From contig JBKQOA010000019.1 of NCBI GenBank assembly GCA_052145735.1, positions 2,783 through 66,782 on the forward strand: a stretch of 64,000 nt of DNA. The letters are read 5' to 3'. Both the position numbers and the translations under genes were made by a program. Positions within the stretch are counted from its first letter, which is position 1. Each line of letters opens with the position of its first letter. Below, in pieces: positions 1-21,501 of the stretch. The notes beneath the pieces are model-generated. The model had not been told where the DNA came from. It was given only the letters and a program-made list of their open reading frames with translations, and did not search any database. Source of the DNA: Limisphaerales bacterium. Lineage in GTDB: Bacteria > Verrucomicrobiota > Verrucomicrobiia > Limisphaerales > UBA11358.

Positions 1-354
1 CGCGTAATATTTCACCACCCCGACACCGGAGTGGGACTTGAAAATCACGACCAGCAGGCAGTGTTCGTCTACGTTGACGACGAACATGCTGGCATTTTCG
101 CCCTGCTGGTAAATGCTGTTGAAACTGGTTTCGTTGACGAGGCCGGCGATGGTCTGGTTGGCCATGAACGCGCCGGAGGCCAGCGCGCCGATGCTGGTCA
201 TGTCGAAATCATGCGCATCGCCCTGTTGCGTGATGAGGAAGCCGCCCTTGTCGATGATCAGCGTGGCCATCGCTTCGGTGCTGGCGATGAATTCACGCAA
301 CACTCCGTCGAGATGGCGGATGTCTTCCTCGATAAGTTGGGGCAGGGTGGCCAT
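1..354 (-). CDS. mglB: Roadblock/LC7 domain protein, MglB-like GAP (3' end runs off the window)
   Basis: Not in the ORF track. Manual translation from ATG at 354 gives MATLPQLIEEDIRHLDGVLREF...ATLIIDKGGFLITQQG...SIGALASGAFMANQTIAGLVNETSFNSIYQQGENASMFVVNV...LLVVIF...GVGVVKYYA, the MglB pattern. It lies directly downstream of mglA. Confidence 0.88.
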   Translation of the reverse strand, partial: MATLPQLIEEDIRHLDGVLREFIASTEAMATLIIDKGGFLITQQGDAHDFDMTSIGALASGAFMANQTIAGLVNETSFNSIYQQGENASMFVVNVDEHCLLVVIFKSHSGVGVVKYYA

Positions 355-355
355 G

Positions 356-970
356 TCAGGCGTACTGCGGAACGCTTTGGTTGATGAATTTGTGCAACAG
401 GAGGCGCGTGATCATGTTCAGCGACTCGAACACGCCCTCGCATTTGTGCGCCGTGGCGCCGAACGACGGCACCTGCACTTCGCGGTTGTTCAGCAGGTAT
501 TCCATGTATTCCATGGGCGCGGCATTGGGCAGGTCGCGCTTGTTGTATTGCAACACGTAAGGAATTTCCGCGAGGTTGAGTTTGAGCGAATTCAAGTTAT
601 CCACGAGGTTTTGGAAACTATCGACGTTCTCCGGCATTTTTTCGTATTGCGAATCGGCCACGAACACGATGCCGTCCACGCCGCGCAACACCAGTTGCCG
701 GGTGGTGTTGTAAATCACCTGACCGGGCACGGTGTACAGCTGGAACTTGGTCTTGAAACCTTTGATGGTCATGGCTTCGATCGGCAGGAAATCGAAAAAC
801 AGGGTGCGGTCGGAGCTGGTGGCCAGCGACACGAGTTTGCCCTTGTTGCCTGCGGCGGTTTGCACATGGTCATGGACCTGCACGAGGTTGGTCGTCTTGC
901 CGCCCATCGCCGGGCCGTAATAGACGATTTTGACCTGCAGTTCTTTGGTGGCTTGGTTGATGATGGCCAT
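356..970 (-). CDS. mglA: MglA-family small Ras-like GTPase
   Basis: KIVYYGPAMGGKTTNL (G1), DRTLFFDFLP, FQLYTVPGQV (G3), LQYNKRDL (G4). Confidence 0.95.
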   Translation of the reverse strand: MAIINQATKELQVKIVYYGPAMGGKTTNLVQVHDHVQTAAGNKGKLVSLATSSDRTLFFDFLPIEAMTIKGFKTKFQLYTVPGQVIYNTTRQLVLRGVDGIVFVADSQYEKMPENVDSFQNLVDNLNSLKLNLAEIPYVLQYNKRDLPNAAPMEYMEYLLNNREVQVPSFGATAHKCEGVFESLNMITRLLLHKFINQSVPQYA

Positions 971-974
971 AGGA

Positions 975-2879
975 TTATTGTTTTTTTCTGTCGAGTTCGG
1001 CGGCCAGGGCGGCCAGTTGGGCGCTGGGCAGTGATTCGCCCGCTTTTCCGAAGGCGGCGAAATAAACCGCGTTCACGCGGAAAATCCTCCAGGGCACGTT
1101 GCCGACGGTGAAATTGAAATTATTCAACGAGCCCATCCGCAATTCCTTGGTACTCTGGCTCACGCGGTCGAAAATCTGCGGCAAAAACGCAGCCAGGGTG
1201 TCGGCGTTCAGATCGGGCGGGACCTGGCTGGCTACCCGCAAACCGTCCGGCAGCGCCACCACCACGCCCACCACCCCGGGCAGGTTCATCGCGCGCTCGA
1301 CGATTTCCTTTGGTGTCGCGTAGCGGCTGGCGAAGTCCGTGGCCGGTTTTTGGAGGTGTTTATATTCGGTTTCGTCCATCCTGGGCGTTTCAGCTTCGTC
1401 GCCCCAGATGTAATAATTGGAGTCCGCGAGCTTGGCGTCCACCGGCTTGAGGGCAGGCCGGGCTGGCGGTGGTTCCGGCAGGGGACGAACGGGCTGCGGC
1501 TCCGGCATCAGCCGGAGAGGCGGCGGTTCCGGAGCGGGCGGCATAGGCTGTGGCTCCGGCATTTTGGCCGGCGGTGGCGGCGGCGACGATTCGGGTTGTG
1601 GAAAACCAAAAAACAAATTAGGGATTTCAGCCGGAGGCTGTGCCGGGGATTGCGTCCGGGGCGCGGCTTTTTGTCGGGCGAAAAACAACGGAGCGATGAC
1701 GCTCAAGGGCAGTTCCAATTCGATGCCGTCATGAACGGATGCCGGCGGCGGCGGTTTGATGAGAGGGCGCAGGTTTCGCCAGGTGAAAGTGATGCGTCCG
1801 CGTTTCAAGGCCGGCTCGATCAAGTGAGTCGGCAGCAAAACCTGGGCATGAGCCAGATTTGACTGTATGATTTCGAGTCGCAGTCCTTCCGGCCAATGTT
1901 CCGAGAGCGCGGTCAGCGGGGCGGAAATGGCCCCCGATTCCATCGGGGCCGGGGCCATGTGGACCGGGGCCGTGTGGACTGGTGCCGCCGGGGCCGGGGC
2001 CGCTGTTGTCGGGGGCGGCGGGGGAATAACGGGTTTCGGCGCGCCGTTGCTGTGGGGTGTGGCCACGTCGGAGGAGAATGAAAATGAAGTGTCATGCGAC
2101 ATGGATGACGGAAGTGGTGTCGTGACGCCTGAAGCCGGGGTAATGGCGCGGGGTACAAACGCCGGCGGTGGAGGGGTGACGGGTATCGGCTGAGCGGGCG
2201 GCGGATTAACGGGTGCGACCATGCGCAATGACTGTGGGTTGGTGCGCCGGGTCAGGTCGGTGGACGGCGTGGGTTTGGTGTTGGATATTTTCGCTCCTTG
2301 TCCGCCGGGGCCGAAGGGTCCGGTGATTTCCTCGGTGACTTCGACGTGTTTTTGCGCGCTGCGGCGTGACAGGCGGGCCGGGTTGAGCCGCGTCAGGATT
2401 TCATTGAGTGGCAACGTCACGGCCTTGGGATCGTGCTCGCCGCCGGAATTGACGAAGACACCCGGGGCGGCCTGGCGCAATTCGCCGAAAGTGATTTTCA
2501 CGGAGCCAAACGCGAGTTGGGTCAGGATTTTTTCCAGCCGGAGGGAAATCATCGAACCCGGTGGCGGTGCCTGAATGACTTTGGCGCGCAAATCCATGGT
2601 CAGCGCTGCCAGGATGGGAGCCAGCGGCAATTGCAATTCGTCCGGGTTTTCCACCGGCGCGTGGGGCGTGGGGAAGGCCGGGGTCGTGGATGCCGGCGGG
2701 GGCGCCATTTGCGGGTGAACAATGGTAACCGGGGTGGCCATCACAGGAGAGACGGGGCTGTGGGAAACGCGCGGCGTCTGGGGCGCGGTGGCATCAGCTT
2801 CATTGTCGTCGAGGCGGCGCAGCAGGCCCCGCAGCAACCCGGCAAATTTTGTTTTCACGCTGTTTGACATGACACTCAT
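975..2879 (-). CDS. Proline-rich multidomain protein with C-terminal Roadblock/LC7 domain
   Basis: C-terminus LPGVVGVVVALPDGLRVAS...ADTLAAFLPQIF...ELRMGSLNNFNF...AVYFAAFG is Roadblock-like; long Pro-rich linkers; ends 4 bp before the mglA start. Confidence 0.8.
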   Translation of the reverse strand: MSVMSNSVKTKFAGLLRGLLRRLDDNEADATAPQTPRVSHSPVSPVMATPVTIVHPQMAPPPASTTPAFPTPHAPVENPDELQLPLAPILAALTMDLRAKVIQAPPPGSMISLRLEKILTQLAFGSVKITFGELRQAAPGVFVNSGGEHDPKAVTLPLNEILTRLNPARLSRRSAQKHVEVTEEITGPFGPGGQGAKISNTKPTPSTDLTRRTNPQSLRMVAPVNPPPAQPIPVTPPPPAFVPRAITPASGVTTPLPSSMSHDTSFSFSSDVATPHSNGAPKPVIPPPPPTTAAPAPAAPVHTAPVHMAPAPMESGAISAPLTALSEHWPEGLRLEIIQSNLAHAQVLLPTHLIEPALKRGRITFTWRNLRPLIKPPPPASVHDGIELELPLSVIAPLFFARQKAAPRTQSPAQPPAEIPNLFFGFPQPESSPPPPPAKMPEPQPMPPAPEPPPLRLMPEPQPVRPLPEPPPARPALKPVDAKLADSNYYIWGDEAETPRMDETEYKHLQKPATDFASRYATPKEIVERAMNLPGVVGVVVALPDGLRVASQVPPDLNADTLAAFLPQIFDRVSQSTKELRMGSLNNFNFTVGNVPWRIFRVNAVYFAAFGKAGESLPSAQLAALAAELDRKKQ

Positions 2880-3199
2880 ACATCACACTCACTGTCCATC
2901 AACCGACAGGTTCCTTGGTTTTAGCAGGAAGCACGCCAACGGCTGGTTTGGGGTTCGACTTCAGGGCCCGCTTCCTTGAAGGTTGCCGGAAGCGCCGGGT
3001 CGGCGGGAAATTTGTCTCAGCGTTGGACTCCTTTGTCCCCAGTCTGTTCAGATTGTGGCATTTAAATTTTCCGGCCGACCTGTCCCAATTGGGAACGCCG
3101 ATTGCTTCTTCCTTGTCAGGTATAAGATTTAATAGCGCTGTTGGCACTTTTCGCACTTGTGTTTGCGGGGCGGCGGCGTTAGCGATTAACGCCATTGGA

Positions 3200-4270
3200 A
3201 TGGAAATGCGTCATAAAATTCTCGTCCTGGATGACGATGCAGCCTGGCTGGGGTTGTGCAATGAATTGTTCACCCACCTGCCCAGCAAGCCGGAAATCCG
3301 CACTGTGGCATCGGGTGCGCGCGCCCTGGCGCTCATGGAAACCGAGCCGTTCCGGCTGTTGATCTGCGATTTGAAGATGCCGCGCATGGACGGTTTGCAG
3401 GTATTGTCCATCGTCCGCCGCCGGTTTCCCGAATTGCGCACGGTCGTGTTGAGCGGTCTGGAGGACGAGGAATTTCGTTCGCGCGCCTACGCCCTGGGCG
3501 TGGATTTGTTCTGGCTCAAAACCGACATGCAGTCCAATTCGCAGATGTTCCTGGACTGCATCGAATCGCTTTTGGGGCGCGACATGGAGGGCGGCTTCCG
3601 GGGCATCCAAAGCAAAAGCCTCATGGACATCATCCAGATGGAATGCCTTTCGCGCAGTTCCACCATGCTGCGCATCACCCGCGGATCGCTCGTGGCCAAA
3701 CTTTGGATCCAGGATGGTGAATTGATTGACGCGGAAACCGAAGGGGCCCGCGGCGAGGCGGCGTTTCTGCGGATTCTCGCGTGGAAATCGGGCACGTTTG
3801 AAAATCTGCCCGCCGAGCCCGGGCGCGAACGCACCATTCTCAAGCCGGTCAACGCCCTGCTGCTGGAGTCCGCGCAGGCAATCGATGAAACCGCGGATGC
3901 CATCGCCTCTGAATCCATCGAACAAACCGCCCATCGGAAGACCATTTGGAAACTGGCGTTGCTGACACGCGAAGGCGCGGAATTCGTCATCGTCGTGCCG
4001 TCCGATGGCCAGGGTGAAACCGAGACCATGGGCATGCCACCCTCCGAACCGCTGGCCAAATGGGCGCGCCGCGTCGGCGAAACCGCCAAACGCCTCGGCG
4101 AACGGATCGAGGTCGGACCCCTGATACACGTTGCCAGTCATAATCTGGAACGTCAGATGCTGGTTTTGAACCGGGAAAACAAAAGTTTTCTCATCGGCTG
4201 GCCGCCGCAGGCGGAACCCGGCCCCTTGTTGGAAAAAAGCAAAAAACTGGTTTCGTCATGGGATTCTTAA
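3200..4270 (+). CDS. Response regulator: receiver domain + DUF4388/PATAN-like domain + Roadblock-like C-terminus
   Basis: KILVLDDD...LLICDLKMPRMDG receiver; SLMDIIQMECL...KLWIQDGELIDAE...GEAAFLRILAWKSGTF resembles DUF4388; start placed at ATG 3200 (or 3206). Confidence 0.85.
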   Translation: MEMRHKILVLDDDAAWLGLCNELFTHLPSKPEIRTVASGARALALMETEPFRLLICDLKMPRMDGLQVLSIVRRRFPELRTVVLSGLEDEEFRSRAYALGVDLFWLKTDMQSNSQMFLDCIESLLGRDMEGGFRGIQSKSLMDIIQMECLSRSSTMLRITRGSLVAKLWIQDGELIDAETEGARGEAAFLRILAWKSGTFENLPAEPGRERTILKPVNALLLESAQAIDETADAIASESIEQTAHRKTIWKLALLTREGAEFVIVVPSDGQGETETMGMPPSEPLAKWARRVGETAKRLGERIEVGPLIHVASHNLERQMLVLNRENKSFLIGWPPQAEPGPLLEKSKKLVSSWDS

Positions 4271-4575
4271 AACGATTTTTCCGTTCCCGGGCGGCAGTGC
4301 AGCAACTGCCGACCGGCAGTTTGACCGTGGACCGCAACGGCCAGGTGGTCACGACCACGGTCTCATCCGCCTATCCCAAGGCGTTGCTGCGCGACATCGG
4401 TCACGAAGTGCTGGGCCTCTTTCAGGAGGCGCGCGCGGCCCAGATGCCGCTGGCTGAGATCAGCCTCCATTTCGCCAGCCTCCGCATCACCGCCCGCGAA
4501 TTGCGCGGTGGCGCCATCATTTTTCTTTTCCCGCAAGCCGCCTTTTCGCCCACGACAACCGCACCACACTTATGA
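4258..4575 (+). CDS. Hypothetical protein, possible divergent Roadblock/longin-like fold
   Basis: Overlaps the end of the upstream gene; GSLTVDRNGQVVTTT, then a helix, then ISLHFASLRITARELRGGAIIFL. Confidence 0.65.
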   Translation: MGFLKRFFRSRAAVQQLPTGSLTVDRNGQVVTTTVSSAYPKALLRDIGHEVLGLFQEARAAQMPLAEISLHFASLRITARELRGGAIIFLFPQAAFSPTTTAPHL

Positions 4576-4964
4576 CTGCCAAAGAACTCAACCAATTGGT
4601 CACCCAGATCGAAACGCACATCGAGTGCTGGAAACAGTTCAACCATTTCATCAACGTCGCGCGCGGAAAGAAGTTCGGGCCGGCGGAGGAGAGCCATTTC
4701 CTCGAAATCAAAAGCATCATTGTGCAGGAGATTGAGTTGATTTACGCCGCCATTGAAGTCGCCTCGCCCACGCGCGACGAAATCCATGCGCTCATCGGCA
4801 ATGCGCCGTCGTTGCGTTACCTCGGCGAAATGAGCGAAGGCGCGCTCCGGGGCCTGGAAGCCCAGTGGCACAAGATTTACATCGCCTGGCACTCCATCCT
4901 GGGCCAGCTCAAGGTCAAACAGCACGGCGAGGAAGTGAAGTCGTTCTGGGGCGCAAAAAAATAG
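4572..4964 (+). CDS. Hypothetical, predicted all-helical protein
   Basis: ATGA overlap with the preceding gene; protein-like composition. Confidence 0.75.
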   Translation: MTAKELNQLVTQIETHIECWKQFNHFINVARGKKFGPAEESHFLEIKSIIVQEIELIYAAIEVASPTRDEIHALIGNAPSLRYLGEMSEGALRGLEAQWHKIYIAWHSILGQLKVKQHGEEVKSFWGAKK

Positions 4965-5074
4965 CGCCGGCGTCACTTCTTTCTTGCCTGCCGCGCCGGT
5001 TTCGCGTCCAAATGATCCCTGCCTGACCGGCCGGTCGCAGCCAGTCCACGGATGAACAGGGGAATTTCATAAAC

Positions 5075-5935
5075 ATGCTCAATTATTTTCAAATTCTGAT
5101 TTTGGCGCTGATTCAAGGCGCGTGCGAGTTGCTGCCGGTTTCAAGCTCGGCCCACGTCATCGCGGCGGAAAAACTTATGAAACTGGATCCAGCGAGCCCC
5201 GAAATGGTCATGTTGCTCGTCATGTTGCACACCGGAACCATGTTCGCGGTCATCGCCTACTTCTGGAAAAACTGGCAACGTGACTATTTCACCGCTCCGG
5301 GAAAACTCCGGTGGTTTGCCATCCAGATTGTGGTGGCGACCTTTTGTACCGGAATCGTGGGTTACGGATTGAAGGAGGTCATCGAGAAAATCTTCATGCG
5401 CGGCGTGCCGCACGCCGAGGTCGAGGACTTGTTCTCCAATCTGCCGTTGATCGCGGGAGCGCTGGCGGCGGTCGGAGCCTTGATTATTTACGCCGGACTG
5501 CGCGAGGAAAAATCACCGCGCCATTCAGAAATTCAGCCGATGCACTCGTGCTGGATCGGCATCGTCCAGGGCATCTGCCTGCCCTTTCGGGGATTTTCGC
5601 GTTCGGGTTCGACCATTTCCACCGGCCTGCTGCTCGGCCTGCCGAAGCAGAATCTGGAGGAATTCAGTTTTGCGCTGGCCGTGGTCCTGACGCCGCCGGT
5701 GATCGCCAAGGAGGCTCTCCGTCTGCTCAAACAACACGCCTTGAGCGGCCAGGGTTCCGTCCTGCATCTTTTCGTGCCGGGCCTCGTTGGCATGGTGTTC
5801 AGCTTTATGGCCGGGCTGCTGGCGTTGAAATGGCTTTCCCGCTGGCTGGAGCGCGGGCGTTGGAAACTCTTTGGCTATTATTGCCTGGTGGCGGCGGCGG
5901 GCATGTTGCTCCTCCATTTCAAGCTGCCGCGTTAA
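5075..5935 (+). CDS. uppP: Undecaprenyl-diphosphate phosphatase (BacA/UppP)
   Basis: IQGACELLPVSSSAH and GFSRSGSTI motifs; multiple TM segments. Confidence 0.92.
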   Translation: MLNYFQILILALIQGACELLPVSSSAHVIAAEKLMKLDPASPEMVMLLVMLHTGTMFAVIAYFWKNWQRDYFTAPGKLRWFAIQIVVATFCTGIVGYGLKEVIEKIFMRGVPHAEVEDLFSNLPLIAGALAAVGALIIYAGLREEKSPRHSEIQPMHSCWIGIVQGICLPFRGFSRSGSTISTGLLLGLPKQNLEEFSFALAVVLTPPVIAKEALRLLKQHALSGQGSVLHLFVPGLVGMVFSFMAGLLALKWLSRWLERGRWKLFGYYCLVAAAGMLLLHFKLPR

Positions 5936-5978: not shown

Positions 5979-6551
5979 TCACTGCGCTGGTGCCGGAATG
6001 AAAATCTTCTTCCCGACAATCAGATTTTTCGGATCCAGTCCGGGGTTCGCCTTCAAAATCTGGTCGGTGGTCACCTTGATCCCCTGGTCACGATACGCCT
6101 TGGCAATTGCCAGCAGGGTGTCGCCACGCTGGATGGTATAATCGTAACCTTTTTGCGGACCGTTGGCCGGGGTCGAATTGTCGGTCGTGGTCGTGGAAAC
6201 GGCCGGTGGCGACTTGTGTCCCGAAGTCGGGCCGCCGACCTTGCCGAGTTTCTCGATTTCCTTCAAAATCAGTTCCCGGTCCGCCAGCCGTTTCTTGTCA
6301 ACATCCTGGATCTGGTCGGTGAGTTTCTGCAAGTCGTCCGCGTTCGCGCCGGGCCCGCCCGCCTTGTCGCGCAGGTCGCTGATTTCCTTTTCCAGCGCGT
6401 CGATGCGCTTTTTCTGCACATCCAGCGTTTCTTGCAGGTCCCGAATGTGGCCGTTGAGTTCGTTGATTTGCTGCTGGGTCGCGTCATCCTGGGCGCGCGC
6501 GGCGGCAAATGAAAGGCTGAGGATAAAAAACCAAACCAAGATTCGTTTCAT
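5979..6551 (-). CDS. Secreted coiled-coil protein with C-terminal LysM domain
   Basis: Signal peptide; YTIQRGDTLLAIAKAY...ILKANPGLDPKNLIVGKKIFIP. Confidence 0.9.
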   Translation of the reverse strand: MKRILVWFFILSLSFAAARAQDDATQQQINELNGHIRDLQETLDVQKKRIDALEKEISDLRDKAGGPGANADDLQKLTDQIQDVDKKRLADRELILKEIEKLGKVGGPTSGHKSPPAVSTTTTDNSTPANGPQKGYDYTIQRGDTLLAIAKAYRDQGIKVTTDQILKANPGLDPKNLIVGKKIFIPAPAQ

Positions 6552-20150: not shown

Positions 20151-20483
20151 ATGGCTTCTCCCCTGATCGTTGCGCTGACCCAGGAAAACTTCGCGCAGCT
20201 GGTTTTGCAGTCGCCGGTGCCGGTGCTCGTGGATTTCTGGGCGGAATGGTGCGGCCCGTGCAAAATGATCGCCCCGCTTCTCGACGAACTCGCCGACGAA
20301 TACGATGGCAAGGTGAAGATTGGCAAGGTGAACATTGACGAACAGCAGGCGCTGGCCGCCGAGTACGGCATTCGCGCCATTCCCACCCTGCTCCTCTTCA
20401 ACAAAGGCCAGGTTGCCGATCAGATTGTCGGCGCGCGCAGCAAACGCGATTTCAAGACCAGCCTCGACCGCGTCGCGGCCTGA
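20151..20483 (+). CDS. trxA: Thioredoxin
   Basis: [16 protein letters not shown]. Confidence 0.97.
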
Positions 20484-20499
20484 TTCCGGGGCGAGCGTT

Positions 20500-21501
20500 A
20501 TGTCGCTCATCATCACCCCCCGCCAGTTCACCCAGCGCGCCGAGTTGTATCATCAGCTCAATCAGTTCACGTCCGCCGGCATTCCCATCGTCCGCGCCCT
20601 GGAGCAAATCAAACGCAGCCCGCCCGCGGCTGCCTACGGCGAACCCTTGCAGCGCCTGCTCGCCGGCCTGGCCAGGGGCGCAACGCTGACCGAATCGTTA
20701 CAGGCTCTCGATTGGCTGCCCGAGTTTGACCTGGCCTTGATCGGAGCCGGCGAAAAAAGCGGGCGGCTCGATGCCTGTTTTCGCCTGCTCGCCGATTATT
20801 ACAACGACCGCGCGCGTATCGCGCGCCAGGTCATCGCCGATTTGATTTACCCGATCGGGCTGCTACACATGGCCATTTTCATTTTCCCCTTTGCGCAATT
20901 TTTCGCGTCCGGCAATTTGTTCGTTTACCTGGCAAAAACCTTCGGCATTCTGATTCCCCTCTATACCGTTGGAGCGCTGTTGATTTATGCCACGCAAAGC
21001 AGACACGGCGAAGACTGGCGCGCACGCATCGAGTCTTTACTGCGCCCGATCCCCATCCTGGGCACGGCGCGGCACTATCTCGCGCTGTCCCGGCTGGCTG
21101 CGGCGCTCGAAGCACTCATCAGTGCCGGGGTCAACATCTTCGAGGCCTGGGACCTGGCCGCCAACGCGAGCGGCTCGCCGGCCCTGCGACGTACGATTGC
21201 CGCATGGAAACCGCGCCTGGTCGCCGGTCAAATGCCATCCGAAGCCGTGCGCGCCTGCCCGCTGTTCCCGGAAACCTTTGCCAATCTTTATGCCAGCGGC
21301 GAGATCAGCGGCAAACTCGACGAATCGCTCCGCAACCTGAACCGGTTTTACAATGAGGATGGCACGCGCAAGCTCCACGCTTTCGCGCAATGGACACCGC
21401 GGCTCGTTTATCTGCTCGTCGCGCTGATGATCGCCTATAAAGTCGTCCAGTTCTACCTGGGTTACTTCAACCAAATCTCCACCATCACCAACGGGTTTTA
21501 A
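20500..21501 (+). CDS. Type II secretion/type IV pilus platform protein (GspF/PilC family)
   Basis: Two T2SSF repeats: AGIPI...AGEKSGRLD and AGVNI...SGEISGKLDESL. Confidence 0.88.
   Translation: MSLIITPRQFTQRAELYHQLNQFTSAGIPIVRALEQIKRSPPAAAYGEPLQRLLAGLARGATLTESLQALDWLPEFDLALIGAGEKSGRLDACFRLLADYYNDRARIARQVIADLIYPIGLLHMAIFIFPFAQFFASGNLFVYLAKTFGILIPLYTVGALLIYATQSRHGEDWRARIESLLRPIPILGTARHYLALSRLAAALEALISAGVNIFEAWDLAANASGSPALRRTIAAWKPRLVAGQMPSEAVRACPLFPETFANLYASGEISGKLDESLRNLNRFYNEDGTRKLHAFAQWTPRLVYLLVALMIAYKVVQFYLGYFNQISTITNGF

Follow-up and report, generated by a model that had tools for sequence, protein, structure and literature searches.

A clustered MglA/MglB GTPase locus with predicted Roadblock-fold partners in the verrucomicrobial order Limisphaerales

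MglA and MglB form the best-studied Ras-like polarity switch of bacteria, and to our knowledge their partners are known almost only from Myxococcus. The locus described here raises the question of whether six clustered genes of a Limisphaerales bacterium (Verrucomicrobiota) make up a single switch of this kind, and which partners it would employ. The locus occupies positions 1-4964 of the window, the 64,000 nucleotide stretch of contig JBKQOA010000019.1 (assembly GCA_052145735.1) that was analyzed; coordinates refer to the window unless another contig or a fetched locus is named. An earlier note on the window had read these genes as two divergent, tightly coupled operons encoding a self-contained, phosphorylation-controlled GTPase switch. 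We consider it fairly probable, with some reservation, that the locus is one Myxococcus-type MglA/MglB switch module that has lineage-specific partners and occurs throughout the order.

The GTPase, its Roadblock proteins and their partners

The six genes form two triads that diverge from a 320 bp intergenic region (2880..3199). On the minus strand are the gene of ProRbl, a Pro-rich protein of 634 amino acids (open reading frame 975..2879), followed by mglA (356..970) and mglB (1..354), of which the window holds the first 118 codons, its left edge cutting the gene. The plus strand carries a gene for a REC-PATAN-Roadblock response regulator of 356 amino acids (3200..4270), then those of P105 (4258..4575) and P130 (4572..4964), proteins of 105 and 130 amino acids, respectively. 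Gaps of 4 nt (ProRbl-mglA) and 1 nt (mglA-mglB) separate the leftward genes, and the rightward genes overlap by 13 nt (regulator/P105) and 4 nt (P105/P130). The proposal of two divergent, tightly coupled operons is thus borne out for all six genes. A scan of positions 2700-5200 for promoters and terminators gave nothing exceeding chance, with 0 sigma-70-like sites found in the spacer versus 0.8 expected by chance.

The GTPase, a Ras-superfamily protein of 204 amino acids, belongs to the MglA family by sequence. Its residues 1-193 align with solved M. xanthus MglA (6hjh_A) at an E value of 8.4e-62 (211.9 bits), and the match to the Thermus thermophilus chain 3t12_A reaches 9e-58. The motifs GPAMGGKT (the P-loop, GxxxxGKT), DRTLFFDFLP (switch I), TVPGQ, and NKRD all align with M. 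xanthus MglA, including the replacement of DxxGQ by TxxGQ that both proteins share. With catalytic residues assigned among these motifs by general knowledge, the alignment shows that MglA retains, at the level of sequence, every residue required for GTP cycling. Identity across the order is 75-99%, with the exception of a variant in family f10 (58-59%). A locus of this variant group, L043:3346-9205 (genome G033), encodes an MglA that is 58% identical, with a ProRbl-like gene upstream and a 176 amino acid gene without a Pfam match downstream; the group diverges from genes for ExbD, a MotA/TolQ/ExbB channel protein, and a weak TonB-like product. Genes for REC-PATAN, P105, and P130 were not found at this locus.

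Full-length MglB has 161 amino acids (genome contig C19:2651-3136) and is a true MglB homologue by sequence, matching Pfam Robl_LC7 at 36 bits and the M. xanthus MglB chain 6h5b_B at an E value of 6.2e-12. It scores 52.7 bits against the NCBIfam MglB model, under the equivalog cut-off of 200. In every fetched locus that has both genes, mglB lies 3′ of mglA; mglB-mglA is the usual gene order. In 20 of 35 orthologues the C-terminal extension of MglB closes with an aromatic-basic motif (LFRKKKK type), and a D/E-rich C-terminal helix of the M. xanthus type is absent from the extension of the protein studied here. In M. xanthus, according to the accessible part of the source, this D/E-rich Ct-helix binds MglA at the alpha-5 pocket (Baranwal et al., PMC6785124). 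Judging from composition, the basic tail seen here is a different device from that helix, which characterizes a subset of MglB proteins and not the whole family.

CDGSH-type iron-sulfur motifs occur in the C-terminal extension of five of the 35 MglB orthologues, all five belonging to other families within the order (L038:8621-9415, L062:6913-7764, and loci L041, L068, and L070). Pfam, run on two of these, finds zf-CDGSH at 64 bits in two stretches beside Robl_LC7, and the other three were recognized by eye. The extension hints at a redox input to the GTPase-activating protein (GAP).

The third leftward protein, ProRbl, had been proposed to carry a Roadblock domain, and it does. Although the whole protein falls just short of the Robl_LC7 cut-off of 23 bits (21.2 bits), its last 135 amino acids alone (978..1382, minus strand) exceed it at 25 bits; the model also matches the C-termini of 25 of 31 orthologues, with a best E value of 3.9e-10. 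Homologues are already annotated as members of the Roadblock/LC7/MglB family by JGI and NCBI. The composition of the leftward operon, namely a Pro-rich Roadblock protein, MglA, and MglB, is therefore confirmed by Pfam and by sequence matches to solved structures. The remainder of ProRbl comprises a basic amphipathic segment at the N-terminus and two related modules of about 90 amino acids (residues 80-170 and 318-405; BLASTP E value between them 6e-5), which are set in Pro-rich linkers and have no family match. Its start codon is uncertain, with 634 amino acids here versus 627 in a database gene call.

The rightward operon opens with the response regulator, in which Pfam identifies a receiver (REC; about 3218-3523, 60.4 bits) followed by PATAN/DUF4388 (about 3614-3892, 57.4 bits). 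The earlier note had described a REC-DUF4388 protein with a Roadblock-like tail starting at 2915. Its domains stand, but its start does not: the frame opens with TTG at 2915, whereas the conserved start in 17 aligned orthologues is the ATG at 3200. The receiver residues D11, D12, D57, and K107 are invariant in the same 17 orthologues, and from these residues alone we infer control by phosphorylation. Two more DUF4388/PATAN proteins are encoded elsewhere in the genome (contigs C152:41733-42029 and C87:14965-15249).

The C-terminal tail of the regulator (3911..4261) matches no Pfam or NCBIfam model. An AlphaFold2 model of about the last 125 residues, built on 31 sequences, has a mean predicted local distance difference test (pLDDT) of 83.8 and the topology a-b-b-a-b-b-b-a. 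In a Foldseek search of the PDB its top match is the Asgard Roadblock protein 7yh1_A (E value 4.7e-7), with LAMTOR/p14 chains and MglB (6hjm_S) also present, and all 25 PDB rows listed are Roadblock, Ragulator, MglB, or dynein LC7 chains or complexes containing them. The target-normalized template-modeling score (TM-score) is 0.64-0.75 among the first ten ranked matches. The model thus supports a Roadblock fold for the tail.

P105, which likewise has no match in Pfam or NCBIfam, was modeled from 67 sequences. Its orthologues, like those of the tail, were gathered in related genomes and by searching 1.84 billion representative proteins. The family is small, with only 207 representatives at 50% identity among those proteins. 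Its AlphaFold2 model (pLDDT 88.2) consists of a b-b-a-b-b-b core without both flanking helices. Foldseek returns 70 PDB matches at E values of 0.001 or less, among them 7yh1_A at 3e-5, Ragulator subunits, Thermus and Myxococcus MglB, and dynein LC7; all 27 rows listed are Roadblock-type chains or complexes containing one. The target-normalized TM-score is 0.48-0.56 for the first ten ranked matches. A language-model search of the ESM Atlas leads from P105 to LAMTOR families at 0.89, which serves as a lead only. A minimal Roadblock fold is thus supported for P105 by its predicted structure, in line with the Roadblock-like protein of 105 amino acids that had been suggested. Up to four Roadblock domains had been claimed for the locus, and all four find support, two from Pfam and two from predicted structures; Pfam Roadblock domains occur at this locus only in the genome.

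P130 represents a new family. It has no match in Pfam or NCBIfam, a PDB profile search gave only chance-level matches to Aar2 (E value 0.05), and the ESM Atlas returned only verrucomicrobial clusters lacking names. Among 15 orthologues the mean column identity is 70%, the motif ECWKQF being invariant; the C-terminus is aromatic-basic. Long stretches free of Pro and Gly suggest a helical protein, and in complex prediction the fold confidence is high (pLDDT 85 or more).

Natural fusions tie the regulator tail to P105, and P105 to P130. Database protein P0221 (486 amino acids) joins REC, PATAN, the tail, and P105, and P0263 is a tail-P105 fragment. P105 and P130 are fused in database proteins P0163, P0174, P0237, and P0256, as well as in an in-frame fusion gene at locus L039 (genome G027). 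Other long open frames around P130, considered as further fusions, turned out on a frame check to be stop-free stretches of a GC-rich genome. The predicted P105-P130 complex scores 0.43 (median of three runs, with contacts agreeing in at least 89%), while the best control reaches 0.01. Considered alongside the fusions, this score makes it likely that P105 binds P130.

In some families of the order P130 occurs in tandem within one open frame, as three copies (genomes G452 and G529) or two (G454 and G531), for example at L057:8516-9700 and L058:7824-8579. A distant homologue of 170 amino acids (E value 1e-16) is found in another class of the phylum (L075:9844-10356, genome G044). By open reading frame translations, its neighbors encode tRNA synthetases, an HU-like protein, and a permease, with no mglA nearby.

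Co-occurrence and linkage across the order

The distribution of the module was surveyed in 151 genomes drawn evenly from the order and in a sample of 401 genomes of the phylum, and 45 loci were fetched in all, chosen around mglA or P130 matches. MglA is present in 35 of 41 relatives, the window's own genome included. Among the 20 relatives' loci fetched around mglA, 15 contain the six genes in the same divergent layout. In the other five the contig ends after the regulator gene (L040), only the left triad is present (L037, L038, and L051), or the divergent variant is found (L043). All six genes occur in 33 of the 45 loci.

In the draw from the order, P130 is found in 112 genomes and MglA in 109. 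Of the 151, 104 have both, 8 have P130 without MglA, 5 have MglA without P130, and 34 lack the two; three of the five genomes with MglA alone belong to one family with the 58-59% identical MglA variant. Where both genes are present, they lie within 8 kb of each other in 76 of 104 genomes, at a median distance of 4.0 kb. In the draw from the phylum, P130 occurs in 4 of 401 genomes, namely in the window's own, in two others from this order, and in that of the distant homologue. Co-occurrence, linkage, and rarity in the phylum therefore show that the module is specific to one verrucomicrobial order and is inherited as a unit. The survey of gene order bears out the claim that the rightward genes stay linked to mglAB in related genomes. 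The claim of lineage-specific partners also holds: P105 and P130 lack any Pfam or NCBIfam match, and the share of genomes with P130 is 112 of 151 in the order versus 4 of 401 in the phylum.

To the left of mglB, the genome contig encodes a poorly conserved membrane protein of 160 amino acids and then rtcB. The membrane protein was considered as a further component and rejected, as it is conserved in one close relative only. About 15 kb downstream of the module the window holds a lone T2SSF gene (PilC/GspF-type platform; 20335-21501) in unrelated surroundings (recG, an aminotransferase, a glycosyltransferase, and mdoG).

Input, output and competing readings

Roadblock domains act as dimers that dock on small GTPases. 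If the locus is one switch module, an MglB homodimer would serve as the GAP, and the regulator tail and P105 would form a putative Roadblock heterodimer, with P130 bound to P105 within the complex and ProRbl acting as a flexible scaffold. Phosphorylation of D57 by a kinase encoded elsewhere would alter the engagement of MglA or MglB by the complex, and PATAN would relay this state to the type IV pilus motor, setting where or when pili are made. The aromatic-basic termini of P105, P130, MglB, and ProRbl would keep the complex on the membrane.

The proposed output draws on studies of PATAN in other bacteria. According to the accessible parts of the sources, PATAN serves as the output domain in Synechocystis, where its binding partners are PilB1 and PilC (Han et al., bioRxiv 10.1101/2021.06.11.447907), and mglA and mglB homologues are often found near PATAN genes (Wuichet and Sogaard-Andersen 2014, PMC4316618; bioRxiv 10.1101/2021.06.11.447907). 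By analogy, control of type IV pilus polarity is the most likely output. The genome encodes six PilT-family proteins over cut-off, further T2SSE-type ATPases, and one PilM. In another genome of the same genus (G008), a PilT-like T2SSE ATPase gene lies directly 3′ of mglB (L049:9240-10260).

The membrane role rests on short aromatic-basic motifs found at one end of four of the six proteins (P105, P130, MglB, and ProRbl). P105 begins with MG[FLI][LI] in 27 of 31 orthologues, and many ProRbl orthologues begin with a similar segment of the MF.F/L.K type. The tails of P130 and MglB are of the LFGKK or LFRKK type, and the C-terminal pattern [LIFWM][FW]x0-2[KR][KR] occurs in 23 of 34 P130 and 20 of 35 MglB orthologues versus 34 of 3968 crude open reading frames of the genome. 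At locus L052 the N-terminus of the P105 orthologue, GFLKRLF, is identical to seven residues of the E. coli MinD C-terminus (K-12 record), and the orthologue at L050, which starts with ME, shares FLKRLF with it. The C-terminal tail of MinD is an amphipathic membrane-targeting sequence. In the distant P130 homologue from another class, the place of the motif is taken by a hydrophobic, transmembrane-like segment at the end of the protein, which fits a membrane role. By their sequence, the aromatic-basic termini probably hold the predicted complex at the membrane. The likeness among the N-termini is descriptive only, as the regular expression fits poorly and catches 12 of 31 P105 and 2 of 36 ProRbl orthologues.

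A number of results weigh against the favored reading. With regard to input, none of the six genes of the locus encodes a kinase, and neither CheA dimerization nor CheW domains were found in the genome, which is 92.7% complete. The description of the switch as self-contained was therefore too strong, and a Frz-like pathway is unlikely. With regard to output, the co-occurrence with type IV pili that had been proposed as a check proved uninformative: PilM is present in 137 of the 151 genomes of the order, many of which lack the module, and the adjacency of PilT to mglB is a single case among the 45 loci. Linkage is incomplete as well: of the 104 genomes with both operons, 27 have them on different contigs, many of these assemblies being fragmented, and one closed genome (G572) has them 436 kb apart. 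Regarding the fold assignments, hhalign comparisons with MglB gave probabilities of at most 2.5% for the tail and for P105 and nothing significant for the full regulator, so both cryptic Roadblock calls rest on predicted structures. The comparison of the ProRbl C-terminus with the MglB alignment was not significant either; since Pfam does detect this Roadblock domain, the shallow profiles seem too weak for such a comparison. The P105-P130 complex score is a weak pass only: 58 of 80 solved complexes attain the mark, as do 2 of 110 mismatched pairs, and passing scores of 0.60 or less came from only 7 of the 80 solved complexes and from both passing mismatches. Finally, the C-terminal pattern was defined after seeing the data, and a hydrophobic-moment test separated neither the termini nor the MinD tail (45th percentile) from background.

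The results on output bear on a rival explanation in which the same module serves another end, such as polar growth, envelope synthesis, or the choice of the division site, with MglA as a general spatial switch. The uppP gene follows P130 on the same strand (5075-5935) and is itself followed by a gene for a LysM protein (5979-6551). Across the order, uppP lies on the same strand within 2 kb 3′ of P130 in 17 of 38 P130 loci, including the genome with operons 436 kb apart, and the LysM-protein gene is often next. The presence of pilus genes does not tell genomes that have the module from those that lack it, and the terminal motifs are similar to the one in MinD, a protein of the division site. 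However, no uppP is found near P130 in the other 21 of the 38 loci, and in the window uppP lies 110 nt from P130, whereas the module genes overlap. Moreover, MglA and PATAN act on motility machinery in the characterized cases considered, as far as the accessible sources describe them. On balance, an output other than pili appears rather unlikely.

A bolder elaboration, which we regard as unlikely, takes the locus as a membrane-bound, Ragulator-like platform around MglA. The Roadblock units assembled around the GTPase would be the tail/P105 pair, the ProRbl domain, and the MglB dimer. Several weak MinD-like termini would make attachment to the inner membrane dependent on assembly of the complex, and phosphorylation of the receiver would toggle between sequestering and releasing MglB. 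The result would be a polarity switch that needs no chemosensory pathway of the Frz type and whose action on the pilus motor runs through PATAN, with P130 as a new kind of adaptor for GTPase modules.

An alternative to the single switch module is that the two operons are independent neighbors, the rightward triad running pili alone and ProRbl, MglA, and MglB forming a separate switch. Each triad stays whole when the two are separated, both in G572 and in genomes such as G037, where they are on different contigs, and in one rearranged locus (L091) the operons lie 7.9 kb apart. Against this, the phyletic patterns of the two are nearly identical, with only 13 of the 151 genomes having just one, and of the 104 genomes with both, 76 have the operons side by side in divergent orientation. 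In the phylum draw, roughly 398 genomes lie outside the order, and P130 was detected in 1 of them. In addition, the Roadblock fold, which docks on MglA, is detected by Pfam at this locus only, and the structure models place two more such domains in the rightward operon. Independence of the operons is accordingly improbable. It is scarcely credible that the tail and P105 assignments are artefacts of structure prediction and that both are unrelated small alpha/beta domains, for, although neither has a significant sequence-profile match to MglB and the best PDB sequence match of P105 has an E value of only 0.064, that match is itself a Roadblock protein (7yh1), the models are confident (pLDDT 88 on 67 natural sequences and 84 on 31), all Foldseek rows listed are Roadblock-family chains or complexes containing one (E values down to 4.7e-7), and the language-model search led independently to LAMTOR families.

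Relation to known systems and significance

The closest counterpart of the locus is the Myxococcus polarity module (MglA, MglB, MglC, RomR, RomX, and RomY). Both have a related MglA and a true MglB homologue, both feature extra Roadblock-fold proteins beside the GAP (MglC in Myxococcus), and both include a receiver-domain protein, a Pro-rich disordered region, and small partners without known domains. Unlike in Myxococcus, where RomR is Pro-rich and Glu-rich, the receiver here is carried by a PATAN-Roadblock protein and the Pro-rich region by a separate Roadblock protein. The locus also differs in having four Roadblock domains, one of them minimal, in the lack of any CheA or CheW (Frz-type input) found here, and in the basic-aromatic end of MglB, compared with the D/E-rich Ct-helix described in the accessible part of PMC6785124. 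All six genes are clustered at this locus, with no match of P105, P130, or ProRbl to NCBIfam or Pfam beyond Robl_LC7, the presence of RomX, RomY, and MglC models in these libraries being unconfirmed. Polarity genes of Myxococcus are scattered in the genome. In sum, the domain types are those of the Myxococcus module, rearranged and placed in one locus that is conserved and unstudied and that comprises two unannotated families.

The regulator also resembles cyanobacterial PatA-type regulators (PixE and PixG), in which a receiver is joined to PATAN/DUF4388. It differs from them in its reversed, REC-first order and in the appended Roadblock domain, and in ancestry, the cyanobacterial proteins deriving from chemosensory systems, of which a search of this genome revealed none. 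The eukaryotic Ragulator (LAMTOR1-5) and Rag offer a further parallel, as several Roadblock-fold units surround a small GTPase, an arrangement that is predicted here, and LAMTOR chains are among the best Foldseek matches of the tail and P105 models. The shortest LAMTOR subunits are without flanking helices, as is P105. Both systems would have a membrane anchor, which in Ragulator is lipidated LAMTOR1 and here would be the putative amphipathic termini. No sequence relationship to Ragulator is detectable.

The conservon of Streptomyces (CvnA-D) is likewise an operon that combines an MglA-like GTPase, a Roadblock protein, and two-component signaling, according to the accessible part of the source (PMC4316618). 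It features a histidine kinase and a DUF742 protein and no REC-PATAN, whereas Pfam finds neither a kinase nor DUF742 among the six proteins of the locus, and a reading of the locus as a conservon was rejected on these grounds.

The earlier note had known of no characterized equivalent in Verrucomicrobiota, and this agrees with the literature searched: among work on MglA in Verrucomicrobiota, Limisphaerales, or Pedosphaera and on PATAN with MglA or Roadblock, no description of the module was found, in a search that covers subscription journals sparsely. Nor did anything in print turn up on how the host group moves or polarizes. Even in Myxococcus the roles of RomR and RomX are disputed, with RomRX reported, in the accessible part of the source, not to be a guanine nucleotide exchange factor (PMC13408092).

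Bacteria of this group abound in soil and freshwater. A module found across a whole order of such bacteria is a natural comparison for asking which interactions are essential in MglA-type switches, and it defines two unannotated protein families, the minimal Roadblock protein P105 and P130. It also raises the idea that multivalent amphipathic termini may attach a small-GTPase module to the membrane.

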